Positions 26,749 through 32,689 of a DNA stretch of 54,965 bases are shown piece after piece (the first letter of the stretch is position 1; each line of letters opens with the position of its first letter). The notes under the pieces are model-generated. The model was not told the origin of the DNA. It made no database searches and saw only the letters and a list, made by a program, of their open reading frames with translations. A program made the translations under genes and the position numbers. The stretch comes from an uncultured Clostridia bacterium (GTDB lineage: Bacteria > Bacillota > Clostridia > TANB77 > UBA1234), in contig CAMUYU010000003.1 in NCBI GenBank assembly GCA_947164995.1, positions 1 through 54,965 on the forward strand, in the 5' to 3' direction.

Positions 26749-28455
26749 TTAATAGTCAAATCTTTTTTCGTTTTCTACTGGTTTTGAACTATCATACTCA
26801 ACCAATAAATCTAATACTTTATATTCTTTATCAAAAGTATCATCTTTTAATTCTTCATTTTCTTTTTCAATATACGATTTCAAATCAGTAAATATTTCTT
26901 TATATTCTTTACTTACACTAAGAGGTACAGAAGTACGTTCATGCTCACCTAATTTTAATATAATAAAACTTTCATCATATTTGTAACCATCGATAATACC
27001 AGAAACTGGAAGAATTAAGAAATCTTTATTATTACTTCTTTCATATAAAATCCAGTTTTTAAGAACATTTACATATCTAACTAATACAATTGCTTTTCTT
27101 ATGCCAGTATTATCGTAATATTCTTCTTCAGTTTCTTTAAATGATACACTTTGTTCATCTTTATAACTTTTATTATTTCTATCTTTAAAAGATACTGTTA
27201 ATTTTAATTCTCCGTTTTCTTTATTGCCTTTTGGAGTAACTTTTAAAAGAATAACTCCGCCTTTTACTTCTCCGCCTTCACTCTTTGATGGGAATAAAGT
27301 GTTTACTTTCATAATATTTCCATTTTTAGCATTTGCACTATCAGAACCATAAATTGCTTCTATACTATAATCTTTAGAATCAACATCTAGTGACAAATCA
27401 AATACTAAAGGTGTTACCATAAATTCAAATTCTTCACCCATTCTTTTTTGGAACTCTTCATTATTATGAACTGAATAATAGTTAGCACCCTTAACATCTG
27501 TAATTTCTTCTATTAGTTTAGTATTAAAATCTACACCAACGCCAATAAATGTTGTATATATTCCACTTGTTGCATTATTATCAACCATCTTTAAAAGACT
27601 ATTACTACCTGTTTCTCCATAGTTTGGCATTGCATCTGTAATGATAATAATTCTATTTTCATATTCATCTTTATTTGCATTTTGGAAATTTTTAAAAGCA
27701 GCCGTTGCTTCTATGTAACCAGCTGAAAAATTTGTGCCCCCTCTATCAGTAATTTCCATTATATTGTTTTTTAAATTGCTAAGATTTAAATCTGACACTT
27801 GTTTAATTGTTTGTAGTGTTTTGGCTTCTGAATCAAAAGTTACTAATCCAAAACAATCATCTGGTTTTAATTGATCAATCAATGTGCACACTGCTTTATT
27901 AGCAAGTTTCATTTTGCTCTCACTAATACCACCATTAGCAAAAGGATTATCATAATAATAACTACTAAAGCTTGAACCCATTGATCCAGAAATATCTAAT
28001 AAAACTAATAGATTTAATTTCTTTCTTTGAAAATCTTCTTTAATATTTGAATTAAGACCAACAGTTAAATAATATTCATTTTTACTAGAAACAGGATCTT
28101 TTGAAATTGCAGTTGAATATGATGGGAAAAATAACGGTTCATCACCAGTTCTATTTTCATCTAGCATTCCTGTATCAAACATATAATCATAGAAAATACC
28201 ATTATATGTTACATCTGTTGAAATAGGAAAATAACCATTTTCAATATTTTCTCTAAAGTTTTCAATATCTTTTGCTCCTCCAACAGAATAACCTAAATAA
28301 CTAGCAGATTCCATTTTCCCATAATTCATTGAAGAAAGACCCTGACCAGCATTTTGTGCTATTTGTTGACTTTGGTTCATTAACAACGTTGCAAATGACA
28401 AAAGAACAACTAATATAATTACTACTACAACAATTACAACAATTTTTGTCTTCAT
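26749..28455 (-). CDS. Membrane-anchored von Willebrand factor A protein, YfbK-like architecture.
   Basis: N-terminal TM, then SYLGYSVGGAKDIENFRENIENGYFP (vWA N-terminal module), then the MIDAS motif LLVLLDISGSMGS ... GGTN ... ITDAMPN. The start is ambiguous: the ATG at 28455 has an AAAGGAG RBS, while the ATG at 28476 overlaps the tpiA stop. Confidence 0.78.
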   Translation of the reverse strand: MKTKIVVIVVVVIILVVLLSFATLLMNQSQQIAQNAGQGLSSMNYGKMESASYLGYSVGGAKDIENFRENIENGYFPISTDVTYNGIFYDYMFDTGMLDENRTGDEPLFFPSYSTAISKDPVSSKNEYYLTVGLNSNIKEDFQRKKLNLLVLLDISGSMGSSFSSYYYDNPFANGGISESKMKLANKAVCTLIDQLKPDDCFGLVTFDSEAKTLQTIKQVSDLNLSNLKNNIMEITDRGGTNFSAGYIEATAAFKNFQNANKDEYENRIIIITDAMPNYGETGSNSLLKMVDNNATSGIYTTFIGVGVDFNTKLIEEITDVKGANYYSVHNNEEFQKRMGEEFEFMVTPLVFDLSLDVDSKDYSIEAIYGSDSANAKNGNIMKVNTLFPSKSEGGEVKGGVILLKVTPKGNKENGELKLTVSFKDRNNKSYKDEQSVSFKETEEEYYDNTGIRKAIVLVRYVNVLKNWILYERSNNKDFLILPVSGIIDGYKYDESFIILKLGEHERTSVPLSVSKEYKEIFTDLKSYIEKENEELKDDTFDKEYKVLDLLVEYDSSKPVENEKRFDY

Positions 28456-28475
28456 AATAAATCTCCTTTTAGACA

Positions 28476-29228
28476 TTATTTGTCAAAATTAACAATATCA
28501 GCAAAATCTTTAGGTGTAAGGCTTGCTCCTCCTACTAACCCACCATCAATATCTTCTAAATTAAATAGTTCTTGTGCATTAGTTGGCTTAACACTTCCGC
28601 CATATAAAATTCTAATTTTATCTGCTACATCATCATTGTACATTTTTCTAATTTCATCTCTTATTAATTTACATGCTTCATTTGCATCTTCAGTAGAAGC
28701 TGTCTTACCTGTTCCAATTGCCCAAATAGGTTCATAAGCTATAATCATTTGTTCAGCAAATTTTGCAGGTAGTCCTTCTAAATCTTTTCTAATTTGAATA
28801 ATTATTTTTTCTTTTGCTATTCCTAATTCTCTTTCATATAATGTTTCACCAACACATAGAATAGGTACAATTTCATGATCAAAAGCAGATTTAATTTTCA
28901 AATTAACATAGTCATCTGTTTCATGATGGAATTGTCTTCTTTCTGAATGCCCTATTATAGAATATTTTATACCAATATCTTCAAGCATTTTTACAGAAAC
29001 GTCGCCTGTTAAAGCCCCTGCAACTTGATGATTTAAATTTTGAGTTCCTATCTTAATATTTGTATCATGTGTACTTTCTAAAGCTGCTGCAACATCAATA
29101 TAAGGTACACACAAAATGATTTCATGTTCACTATCCTTAACCAAATCATTAAATTCAGCAAAATAATTTCTTGTGTCTTTTGGAGAATGATTCATCTTCC
29201 AATTTCCTGCTATAACTTTTTTACGCAT
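28476..29228 (-). CDS. tpiA: Triosephosphate isomerase.
   Basis: AGNWKMN, IGHSERR, AYEPIWAIGTG and GGASL motifs. Confidence 0.97.
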   Translation of the reverse strand: MRKKVIAGNWKMNHSPKDTRNYFAEFNDLVKDSEHEIILCVPYIDVAAALESTHDTNIKIGTQNLNHQVAGALTGDVSVKMLEDIGIKYSIIGHSERRQFHHETDDYVNLKIKSAFDHEIVPILCVGETLYERELGIAKEKIIIQIRKDLEGLPAKFAEQMIIAYEPIWAIGTGKTASTEDANEACKLIRDEIRKMYNDDVADKIRILYGGSVKPTNAQELFNLEDIDGGLVGGASLTPKDFADIVNFDK

Positions 29229-29358
29229 AAAAAATCTCCTTCTTTCTTACCATACTAATTTTGGAATAACCCTATAATATGGTACTATAACGAAAATAAT
29301 ATTTCAATTATTTAGAAGAATTGTAATAATTAAAGTTCCATGAAAAATAAATAAAAAT

Positions 29359-29393
29359 AAAAAAAGAGCTATAATCTAAAAAGACTATAGCTC
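29359..29393 (-). terminator. Intrinsic terminator closing the GC-rich RNA candidate.
   Basis: On the minus strand: gagctatagtc-uuuuu-agattatagctc (11 bp including one G-U) followed by a U7 tract (plus-strand A-run at 29359-29365). Confidence 0.7.
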
Positions 29394-29700
29394 CCTCCGG
29401 CAAAAGACAACAGGCCGGAGTATCTCAAATGGTCGCGCAAAAAAGCCCTTCGGACTACAGCGAGGATCACGCCTTGCCCTCATTGGCAAACCTCCCGGAA
29501 CCTTATAAGAGTAATAGTCCTATTATTACCTTCATAACAGGATTCCCCTTGCATCACTCTTTTCCGCCGGGCAAACTACACATCATTTTCTGGTAGACCT
29601 TCCCATCTATTTGATACCATAAAGCATCAAAACAAGGAGTCCCTTTTGTTCCTTTAAATACAGCGCGGCCATTTGCTTCTGACATTAAAATACTCTTAAT
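29359..29700 (-). ncRNA. Unclassified structured RNA candidate, either a stand-alone sRNA or a cis-leader of tpiA.
   Basis: There is no ORF of 60 aa or more in any frame across 29229-29832. By hand count the GC content is about 45%, rising above 50% over 29401-29520, against about 30% in the flanks. Helices on the minus strand: 29663-29674 pairs with 29427-29438; a hairpin spans 29497-29546; further hairpins at 29474-29489, 29444-29456 and 29395-29420; and a terminator follows. The G-U pairs favour the minus strand. Confidence 0.4.
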
Positions 29701-29789
29701 AAAAATCGTTAAATTATAGTCAGTATTTTTCATTTGAAATATTGGCTTGCTATATTAGCATCGCCTCTTTAATTCTTTTGTTCAACGAT

Positions 29790-29818
29790 AAAATATCATA
29801 TTTTTACAATTATGTCAA
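29790..29818 (-). promoter_or_regulatory. Candidate sigma-A promoter upstream of the RNA candidate.
   Basis: On the minus strand: TTGACA (29813-29818), 17-nt spacer, TGaTATTTT extended -10 (29790-29795). Confidence 0.3.
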
Positions 29819-29832
29819 CGCATTTTTTACTA

Positions 29833-31591
29833 TTAATGATTCATTACTGGCATTCCGCCTGGTATAATACTTGAAAAATCATATTTTTCAGAATAAGAAA
29901 GTTTTTCAATTTTTCCGGCAACACTAACATCATTCATATTTCCAGATTTATTTGATTCAAAATGACAGCTAACTTTTGAAATACTACCATCATTGTGAAC
30001 TAAATACCCATCAAAATAATTTGCCAATCCTTTTTCAGAAGAATATATTTCTTTAATATCATTTATTGAATTATTCACAAGGAATGATTTTAGTGGCTCT
30101 TCATTATAAGCTGAGTCCGTCAAATAATAGTAACATTCTCTTCCGGATATCACCCCCTACAACGATGGCTTTCTTTTGTCCAAAAGAGTAGTTAGAAACT
30201 TCGGCTATTCTATAATTATTATTATTTAAATCTTTATATTGACCATTTATTGGACTATTTAAAACAAATCCTTCATTAATATAATCATCTCTAAAATAAT
30301 CATCACTAATTTTAATTAAGTCGAAATCTTTCCCCCTTTTCTCTGATACAAGTTTTTTCCCATCCTGTGAAACATAATAAAAATCTATTTCATTATCATA
30401 TTTTCCATCTAGGTAATCATCTATAAAATATATACCAAACCCTCTTGAATCTGGATAACCTACTTTTACATTAAAATATTTATTATCATAAGAAACCTTT
30501 ATGTTATTTTTGTTACTATAAATAACAGAATACCATTCAAATCTTGACGAATAAATCTTAACACACTCGCCTGCTTTATTTATATAGATTCCATCTCTAC
30601 CTACTTTGTCACTAATTATATTTAATTCGCCATTTTCAAAGTCAACATCTTCTGCATCAATACTACTATTCTTATAAGTAATTTCCACTTCTCTTGTATC
30701 ATTATTCCATTCTATTTGTGCACCAAACAATTTAGAAATTGCTCTTACAGGTAAATACGTCGTATCTTGATAAGAAATTGGATAAACTGTTAAACCATTA
30801 GCATCTTCAAATTTTTGCAGATTGCTCATATAATAAACCTTAATTTTTGTATTTACTTGTGCACTTATATCTTCCATTTTATTGCTTTCATGTCTTTCAA
30901 CTATTTTTACACAATTAGAAGAAATATCACCTTCACCTAGCAAAATACTTTGATTTTCGCCATTCCATGCAATCTGGGTTTTGAAAAGACCAGATAAGGC
31001 TCTAATTGGAAGGTAAGTAGTTCCATTGTAAGTAATAGGAAATACTCTATCACCATTAGCATTATAAAATTCTAAATAATTACCATTAATAGATATTGGT
31101 AACTCTTTATTCAAAATCATAGGATAATAATTAGATTGAGAAGTTTGAGTAGTTTGAGTAGTTTGAACAACGCTTGTAGTATTAGCTTTTTCTTCCAGTT
31201 TATTAGGAACATTATATGGAATATCTATATCATACATTGGTAAATGTGTTGCTGTTTCATATATATATACGTAGATATATACCGTTTTTCCATAAATATA
31301 TATTCCCTTTGATTCCGCATCATATAAAAGTTCACTTACAGATATGCCATCATTATAAATCTTTCCACCACGAGAACTACTTGAAACATCATAGACAAAG
31401 CCACAAATAACAGTATATTCATCTCCAACATCTGGTGATATTTCTAATTTAAATTTTTCATTTTTACTAAATGTTTCTGGTTCAACAAGATTAACATCAA
31501 ACATTTTTACATCATAATGATATGCTGCATAACAAGATGCAGATATTAATAATAACAATAAAACACTCAAAAATGTAACTTTTTTAAACAT
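29833..31591 (-). pseudogene. Secreted protein with two copper-amine-oxidase-N-terminal-like (stalk) repeats. The reading frame is broken at a G5 run.
   Basis: Signal peptide MFKKVTFLSVLLLLLISASCYA. Two repeats of the type ...VFPITYNGTTYLPIRALSGLFKTQIAWNGENQSILL / ...VYPISYQDTTYLPVRAISKLFGAQIEWNNDTREVEI. ORFs 30104-31591 and 29833-30153 overlap in different frames, and removing one G from GGGGG (30153-30157) joins them. Confidence 0.55.

Positions 31592-31681: not shown

Positions 31682-32689
<1,008 letters not shown>

Follow-up and report, generated by a model that had tools for sequence, protein, structure and literature searches.

This study concerns a GC-rich gap directly upstream of tpiA in the DNA of an uncultured Clostridia bacterium (GenBank assembly GCA_947164995.1, contig CAMUYU010000003.1, positions 1 to 54,965); this whole stretch of 54,965 nucleotides is what we call the window. 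On the minus strand the features around the gap follow in the order gapA, an open reading frame (ORF) with a Cu_amine_oxidN1 domain, a 106-aa ORF, the GC island, tpiA, a gene with a vWA domain and pgk. We propose that the island is probably a stand-alone gene for a structured non-coding RNA (ncRNA) of about 420 nt, which would be transcribed in the direction of tpiA, be restricted to one clade and belong to no known family. The predicted transcription unit and its neighbours are the following (window coordinates).

31682-32686, minus strand: gapA
30104-31591, minus strand: ORF of 495 aa with a Cu_amine_oxidN1 domain
29833-30153, minus strand: ORF of 106 aa
29790-29818, minus strand: predicted promoter of the RNA, sigma-A type, with -35 TTGACA (29818-29813), a 17-nt spacer and a TG-extended -10 TATTTT (29795-29790)
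29359-29783, minus strand: predicted transcript of about 420 nt, made up of an AU-rich 5' part, a GC-rich core closed by helix P1, hairpin P8 and the terminator
29359-29393, minus strand: intrinsic terminator with an 11-bp stem (29393-29383/29376-29366) followed by a U7 tract
29279-29307, minus strand: tpiA's own promoter, TTGAAA-17-TACCAT, from the promoter scan, downstream of the RNA terminator and outside the RNA
28476-29228, minus strand: tpiA
26749-28476, minus strand: vWA-domain gene, between tpiA and pgk

The GC content is 0.454 at 29401-29680 and 0.508 at 29401-29520, as compared with 0.310 for the window overall, 0.301 for the coding sequence of tpiA and 0.345 for that of gapA, and among the non-coding parts of the window GC peaks most strongly in the island between the 106-aa ORF and tpiA. 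The gap at 29229-29832 holds no ORF of at least 60 aa, the longest being 59 aa. These figures agree with an initial annotation, made from the sequence alone, which had described a GC-rich, ORF-free gap carrying a structured RNA candidate. The promoter scored 10 of 12 in a consensus scan, with the TG upstream of the -10 element, and predicts a start near 29783; a terminator scan returned a 17-pair hairpin with a U-tract at 29398-29361 on the minus strand. Both signals had already been pointed out in the initial annotation, and both are kept in L090, the diverged homolog described below. The length of about 330 nt given at that time has to be revised, as the span from promoter to terminator predicts about 420 nt.

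Three ENA contigs which encode an identical TpiA carry the element at about 99% identity, and in one of them, L003, the 3' end of gapA and the gapA terminator lie directly upstream of it. A full but diverged copy is present in L090 (ENA sample ERZ1029114), whose TpiA is 84% identical to that of the window; nhmmer matched the window element to this locus with E = 1.5e-27. The layout in L090 runs from the gapA 3' end and terminator through TTGACATAAT...TGGTATTAT and a GC-rich stretch of about 500 nt, in which GC reaches 0.66, to a terminator, the tpiA promoter and tpiA. A third lineage is represented by the Logan contig L149 (TpiA 90% identical to that of L090), whose sequence starts within the element and covers the final ~70 nt of it. 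The window and L090 share exact blocks of 14, 13, 11, 9, 9, 8 and 8 nt in collinear order. The collinear exact blocks comprise GTTGACATAAT of the promoter, AUGGCCGCG, CCUUGUUU, GGCGUGAUCCUCGC, CCGAAGGGCUUUU, CGCGACCA, AUACUCCGG, CCGGAGGG and the terminator, and the sequence between them is highly divergent, with insertions and deletions. The L090 promoter reads TTGACA-17-TATTAT after TGG. At four-fold degenerate sites the same two lineages are 45% identical in tpiA and 79% identical in the strongly codon-biased gapA. Since exact blocks of up to 14 nt persist despite the 45% identity of tpiA at such sites, the element is conserved well above the neutral level.

The helices of the proposed RNA are listed here in their order along the transcript.

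29679-29723, minus strand: P0, an AU-rich hairpin 5' of P1 closed by CUGAC/GUCAG, from the minimum free energy (MFE) fold of the window sequence
29663-29675, minus strand: 5' strand of P1, CAAAUGG-C-CGCGC, pair probability about 1.0
29595-29642, minus strand: subdomain A, with P3 (GGAC/GUCU), a 2-nt bulge, P4 (UCCU/GGGA) and the P5 hairpin UUUGAUGCU-UUAU-GGUAUCAAA; ungapped match to L090 1291-1338
29564-29572, minus strand: 5' strand of P6, GCCC-GG-CGG, pair probability 0.79
29497-29546, minus strand: H2, an AU-rich 50-nt hairpin with 19 pairs, 3 of them G-U, -12.9 kcal/mol; window lineage only, absent in L090
29474-29489, minus strand: H3, UUGCC-AAUGAG-GGCAA, pair probability 0.90; window lineage only
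29459-29473, minus strand: P7 hairpin, GGCG-UGAUCCU-CGCU; 14-nt block GGCGUGAUCCUCGC identical in L090
29445-29453, minus strand: 3' strand of P6, CCG-AA-GGGC, inside the invariant 13-nt block CCGAAGGGCUUUU, exact in L090
29426-29438, minus strand: 3' strand of P1, GCGCG-A-CCAUUUG; block CGCGACCA identical in L090 and L149
29395-29420, minus strand: P8 hairpin, CUCCGGC-loop-GCCGGAG, in the window MFE fold

The core is closed by P1, in which 29675-29669 pairs with 29432-29426 and 29667-29663 with 29438-29434, leaving a C.A mismatch at 29668/29433. The helix is present as first described, and in L090 it shows two compensatory changes with the mismatch retained. The chance expectation of such a helix had been put at about 0.1, but a 12-bp long-range Watson-Crick helix with one mismatch arises in 11 of 60 dinucleotide shuffles, slightly above that estimate, and the closing helix is therefore not significant on its own. 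As for the mismatch, it is kept in both diverged lineages (29668/29433 in the window, 1263/1415 in L090) while the adjoining pairs covary, and it may be a non-canonical pair that has a function rather than a flaw in the helix.

Inside P1, the joiners UGU and UAGAU of subdomain A are invariant between the window and L090. P6 joins GCCC to GGGC (29572-29569/29448-29445) and CGG to CCG (29566-29564/29453-29451), and the same pairs are possible in L090; all of them are invariant, so that they give no evidence of covariation. These long-range pairs fit better than the local hairpin AGUCC-GAA-GGGCU (29456-29444) drawn at this place in the initial annotation, of which only 2 bp are possible in L090. 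The stem of P7 is longer in L090 (GCGGCG/CGCCGC, probability 1.0); in the window MFE fold it is rivalled by another pairing, and forcing the shared fold on the core costs 3.1 kcal/mol. Its invariant 7-nt loop, UGAUCCU, is anti-Shine-Dalgarno-like. The core is connected to P8 by the linker UUGAGAUA, which has the invariant segment ACCAYUUGASAUA. The P8 hairpin (29420-29395) holds as originally proposed: its stem is identical in L090 and L149, and the loop differs in sequence and length (12 vs 8 nt). In the terminator we observed one compensatory change from A-U to G-C with respect to L090 and L149, and a G.U pair of the window is A-U in L001, L003, L090 and L149.

The periphery of the RNA is more variable. 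L090 has neither H2 nor H3; there, the arm is enclosed by an extra helix, P2, P7 is longer and about 165 extra nt are present at the 5' end. Both hairpins that are confined to the window lineage fold as had been claimed, but H2 contains three and not four G-U pairs, and neither has a counterpart in L090. At the place of P0, 3 nt before P1, a hairpin of much the same size is closed in L090 by AUGACG/CGUCAU; the apparent likeness, read from the sequences, lies only in the common closing pairs UGAC/GUCA. Two short matches were considered as homologous blocks and left out of the model, the 10-mer UUUGCCCGGC, which is out of order, and the 8-mer CAAGGGGA, which is short enough to occur by chance. 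Variability of peripheral hairpins round a conserved core would be typical of structured RNAs, yet the large difference in the 5' half keeps our model provisional.

Is this fold maintained by selection? The sample for covariation consisted of two full diverged copies (window and L090) and the fragment in L149. A global MAFFT alignment of the window and L090 misaligned the 5' half, and the alignment was built instead from shared k-mer anchors and module by module. P1, P3-P8 and the terminator have 57 pairs in common: 41 are invariant, 9 have changed on one side and are still paired, 6 are compensatory and 1 is broken, which means that 15 of the 16 changed pairs remain paired. For subdomain A, unguided RNAalifold gave a consensus of -19.4 kcal/mol with 17 pairs (3 compensatory, 7 one-sided, 1 broken), and 98% of the cells are paired, compared with 31-57% after a shift of the partners by 1-3 columns. 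The maintenance of pairing by compensatory changes is suggestive, not statistically robust. The element is nonetheless present, with such changes, in a diverged relative, and the original proposal of an unclassified structured minus-strand RNA with its own promoter and terminator stands on this homolog, on the conserved blocks, on the six compensatory pairs and on the strand preference discussed below. We consider it likely that a real, selected RNA gene lies on the minus strand.

Several points weigh against this picture, and against a trans-acting role of the RNA. Two full diverged copies and one fragment make for weak covariation statistics, and 14 of 500 shuffles of the 3' letters reach the observed value (three rows, of which two are nearly identical). 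The helices were chosen partly from the same sequences, so that the counts lean towards structure, and most of the strongest ones (P6, P8 and most of P1) are invariant and thus uninformative. The two lineages differ in the architecture of the 5' half of the core, with P2 in L090 only and H2 and H3 in the window only, and the 10-mer mentioned above is common to the two copies but out of order. Pattern scans of JGI metagenomes and of IMG/VR brought up no homolog. A scan of the start regions in the window for targets of the P7 loop found generic GGAGG ribosome-binding sites only, with no preference for gapA, tpiA or pgk. Lastly, the single-sequence z-score of the whole region is stronger on the plus strand (-6.1 vs -3.6).

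This last point leads to the question of whether the functional RNA could be encoded on the plus strand, opposite in direction to the genes on either side. The z-scores, which for the core are -4.9 on the plus and -2.7 on the minus strand, would agree with this, as would the conserved C.A mismatch of P1, which becomes a U.G wobble there. The stronger plus-strand z-scores are, however, due to composition, since in absolute terms the minus strand folds more stably: the predicted transcript has an MFE of -129.8 kcal/mol (z = -3.6), compared with -111.3 kcal/mol for its complement. Nine G-U pairs of the shared model would turn into A.C mismatches on the plus strand, and the consensus fold of subdomain A, at -19.4 kcal/mol on the tpiA strand, drops to -5.5 kcal/mol with 3 broken pairs on the opposite one. 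A promoter and a terminator with its U-tract are, moreover, conserved on the minus strand in both lineages. The mixed strand evidence noted in the initial annotation was thus real in that the mismatch exists and is conserved, but it is outweighed by the G-U pairs and the consensus energies. The functional strand is predicted to be the tpiA strand, and we regard a plus-strand RNA as extremely improbable.

Another way to look at the island is as a decaying remnant of inserted foreign or mobile DNA of higher GC content, functionless, in which recent common descent or transfer, and not selection, would explain why the lineages are alike. The patchy distribution would fit such an origin, because the element is missing from relatives whose TpiA is 71-85% identical, and so would a GC content that greatly exceeds that of the host (reaching 0.66 in L090) and the position of the island in an indel hot spot, with two extra ORFs in the window as compared to L003 and with half of the core differing in architecture. 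It does not readily account for exact blocks of 13-14 nt at a neutral-site identity of 45%, for 15 of 16 changed pairs that are still paired, six of them by double change, or for the intact promoter and terminator in both lineages. A blastn search with the element gave no match among plasmids and phages, and neither viral contigs nor any protein matched it. We therefore hold a functionless remnant to be unlikely and return to the RNA gene.

Granted such a gene, is it a transcription unit of its own or the leader of tpiA? The initial annotation had left both possibilities standing. In the leader version, a riboswitch or a protein-dependent attenuator would control tpiA(-vWA-pgk), with the P1-closed core as the sensor and with P8 and the terminator deciding on read-through. 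The element does lie directly upstream of tpiA on the same strand in all three carrying lineages, and a GC-rich, P1-closed multi-helix domain followed by a terminator and a metabolic gene on the same strand is the usual layout of terminating riboswitch leaders. From the sequence only, two copies of GGAG in the 3' strand of P8 (CCGGAGGGAGC) could also allow a register shift of CUCC which would undermine the base of the terminator. Unlike in such leaders, the stretch of about 130 nt between the terminator and tpiA holds a promoter (TTGAAA-17-TAnnAT). An alignment of 110-120 nt upstream of tpiA from eight relatives showed ATTGA.A-N17-TATAGTA..AT and the ribosome-binding site GAAAGAAGG to be invariant, and four of these relatives (L082, L086, L004 and L154) do not have the element. 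Because the tpiA promoter is kept with or without the element, the latter appears to be a separate transcription unit and not a tpiA leader. L154 (GapA 92%, TpiA 71% identical) has the order gapA-tpiA-vWA-pgk with a gap of 182 nt between gapA and tpiA and no element in it, so that expression of tpiA would not depend on the element. The best upstream partners of the terminator 5' strand differ between the window and L090, a comparison of two sequences only; we found no conserved antiterminator, and no riboswitch family or aptamer class of Rfam matches. We thus think a cis-regulatory leader quite unlikely. In prediction, the element has what a stand-alone small RNA (sRNA) gene should have, namely its own promoter and terminator, the gapA terminator upstream (in L003 and L090) and a separate tpiA promoter downstream, and a stand-alone gene which does not act in cis is the reading that we favour with some confidence.

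The possibility that the locus encodes a small protein, or a dual-function sRNA like SR1 of B. subtilis, was also considered. A 59-aa ORF beginning with ATG exists on the minus strand (29733-29554), shorter ORFs are available as well, and the neighbourhood of gapA recalls SR1P, a precedent for a GapA-linked peptide (PMC4152353). No Shine-Dalgarno sequence precedes the 59-aa ORF, none of the L090 ORFs corresponds to it, and two short ORFs which start from the shared block AUGGCCGCG are dissimilar and, with respect to the conserved AUAGAU block, terminate in different frames. In a tblastx comparison of the window with L090 only short matches in mixed frames were obtained, with no frame-consistent conservation, and gene callers put no gene at the element in L003 or L090. 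Pfam found nothing significant in the ORFs and other frames (best E = 0.067, below its cut-off), and a search of 5.8 billion protein clusters with six-frame translations of the window and L090 elements gave no match at E<=0.1. The idea that the segment might be a decayed fragment of a protein gene, raised in the initial annotation as a way in which it could be wrong, accordingly found no backing in the tblastx comparison or in the protein searches. The element apparently does not code for protein, and a coding function is in our opinion very improbable. In the 5' parts of the RNA, both in L090 (950-1030) and in the window (29740-29790), we noticed a Shine-Dalgarno-like sequence and an ATG, with a stop coming after no more than 1 to 4 codons (AAAGGAGGACTACAAAATGTAG and AAAGAGGCGATGCTAATATAG), perhaps the relic of a displaced gene start or a mini-ORF. 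At L152 (1290-1410) a promoter downstream of gapA, TTTACATAATCTAATGTTTGTGGTATAAT, is much like the RNA promoter of L090 and drives an ORF of 178 aa, for which tblastn gave no match.

Homologs were sought through the synteny of TpiA in species-representative genomes, and then in contigs with TpiA or GapA homologs. The nearest species-representative genomes, L082, L004 and L005 (TpiA 85%, 79% and 70% identical), have no element upstream of tpiA, and the other contigs with TpiA or GapA homologs that were looked up either had no element or had too little flanking DNA. A scan of JGI metagenomes with GTGATCCTCN{3,14}CCGAAGGGCTT gave 57 matches, all of them chance or coding. About half are a recurrent false positive, in which GTGATCCTC-N12-CCGAAGGGCTT matches the coding motif VILY....PKGFFP of RND transporters in high-GC soil bacteria (L094, L098, L100 and ~25 other loci); the 23-nt block CGCGACCAYTTGASATACTCCGG was judged to be a better probe. 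Two patterns scanned against IMG/VR returned 0 matches and 1 chance match, and a search of the window and of 40 loci with a covariance model of subdomain A brought up no additional copy. The element appears to be confined to a small clade of uncultured rumen or gut Clostridia, whose nearest metagenome-assembled genomes come from the ruminant fore-stomach and similar samples, and to be absent from their neighbours. A different lineage, an uncultured Clostridium (L006, 2862-2990, and likewise L007-L010; TpiA 57% identical), has a GC-rich stretch of its own (0.47), about 110 nt long, immediately before the ribosome-binding site of tpiA. Hairpins abound in it, GCCCCUUUAACAAGGGGGC and GUCGCCCGAAUGGGCGAC among them; its sequence shows no relation to the window element, and Rfam gave no match at E<=1.

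Two peculiarities of the neighbouring genes should be mentioned. Both ORFs between gapA and the RNA promoter in the window (29833-31591) are missing in L003, a contig of the same species in which gapA with its terminator directly borders the promoter. Since the window and L003 become homologous a few bases before the -35 element, the two ORFs represent a strain-level indel which adjoins the promoter and does not lie inside the element. The Cu_amine_oxidN1 ORF and the 106-aa ORF overlap by 50 nt in different frames and could be one frameshifted gene. On the other side of the element, the vWA-domain protein (554-575 aa) is found inside a glycolytic cluster that is usually compact, and it occupies the same position between tpiA and pgk in L154 (2090-3754).

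What could such an RNA do? We hypothesize that the sigma-A promoter at 29818-29790 would start a transcript of about 420 nt ending at its own terminator (29393-29359), from a gene placed between the gapA terminator and tpiA's own promoter. The RNA would then act in trans through its invariant exposed segments, that is, the P7 loop, the joiners UGU and UAGAU and the ACCAYUUGASAUA linker, whose partner would be either a protein or the ribosome-binding sites of mRNAs. Sites of the GAGG/GGAGGAU type are complementary to the P7 loop, (G)UGAUCCUC. A trans-acting, stand-alone structured sRNA is in our view the most likely reading, with an action in trans that we infer from the model. That it base-pairs specifically with Shine-Dalgarno regions is a tentative suggestion by analogy, and for a core this complex a protein partner or a ligand is equally possible. 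Perhaps the P1-closed core belongs to a new class of functional RNAs with a complex fold, such as an orphan aptamer, a small ribozyme or a ribonucleoprotein RNA, recently acquired by the rumen Clostridia clade. As an aptamer it might, for example, sense a glycolytic intermediate and control its own termination and read-through towards tpiA, or act in trans. The size and layout of the core, with a closing helix, a three-helix arm and invariant loops and joiners, are usual for ligand or protein binding or for catalysis and not for simple antisense; a new class of this kind is nevertheless improbable.

If the trans-acting sRNA interpretation is right, a new and fairly large structured RNA family would join the bacterial orphan ncRNAs, from uncultured rumen or gut Clostridia and flanked by two of the most highly expressed glycolytic genes. 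Its practical value is limited, as it comes from three metagenomic lineages with no cultured host and its position is the sole functional clue. The element is a reasonable candidate for a wider covariance-model search, and it has not yet changed the understanding of such RNAs.

The element was compared with known RNAs at several levels. A search with the 4227 covariance models of Rfam 15, a set which includes RNase P, SRP, 6S, tmRNA, the T-box, all curated riboswitches, raiA, OLE, GOLLD, ROOL, HEARO and RsaE, found no family at its gathering score anywhere in the window, in line with the initial annotation, which had seen no hallmarks of known families. At a permissive threshold (E<=10) the best matches in the region were snoRNA models, with 18-21 bits against thresholds of 40-47, and a permissive search of L090 gave no family either. 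ARAGORN detected no tRNA or tmRNA in the window. The sole bacterial cis-regulatory match at E<=10 inside the GC-rich element, the PyrR binding site (RF00515), was rejected: it reached 18.2 bits where 54 are needed (E = 7.1), and the alignment was carried by the terminator hairpin and the U-tract. The PyrR-binding hairpin has a conserved loop of the ARUCCAGAGAGGCU type upstream of a terminator.

Among characterized Firmicute sRNAs, RsaE, FsrA and RNAIII bind ribosome-binding sites through C-rich loops (PMC4152353). Like RsaE/RoxS, FsrA and RNAIII, our element has its own promoter and terminator, a CU-rich loop, UGAUCCU(C), complementary to the Shine-Dalgarno sequence, and surroundings of central metabolism. 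It differs from RsaE in length (~420 vs ~100 nt), in its complex closed core, in having no UCCC motif and in having no Rfam match, and we conjecture that the likeness is a functional resemblance and not homology. SR1 of B. subtilis is a dual-function sRNA whose 39-aa peptide SR1P binds GapA (PMC4152353). Both are stand-alone Firmicute sRNAs linked to gapA, a link that is functional for SR1 and only positional here. SR1, known from Bacillales, is encoded away from gapA, and membership in the SR1/SR1P family was rejected since the element has no conserved small ORF and no match in sequence or structure.

The closest parallel is offered by the GC-IGR/DIMPL orphan motifs of the Breaker laboratory (PMC8632094, PMC11109978, PMC8723152). 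Neither PMC8632094 nor PMC11109978 mentions a motif associated with tpiA, gapA or glycolysis, no Rfam family of that kind matches the element, and its distribution, three lineages from metagenomes only, is far narrower than theirs. Like them, it forms a GC island within a long stretch between genes in an AT-rich Firmicute, with a multi-helix core under a long-range closing helix, invariant joiners and loops, and variable peripheral hairpins. In these terms the element is a new RNA family of a known kind, narrowly distributed.

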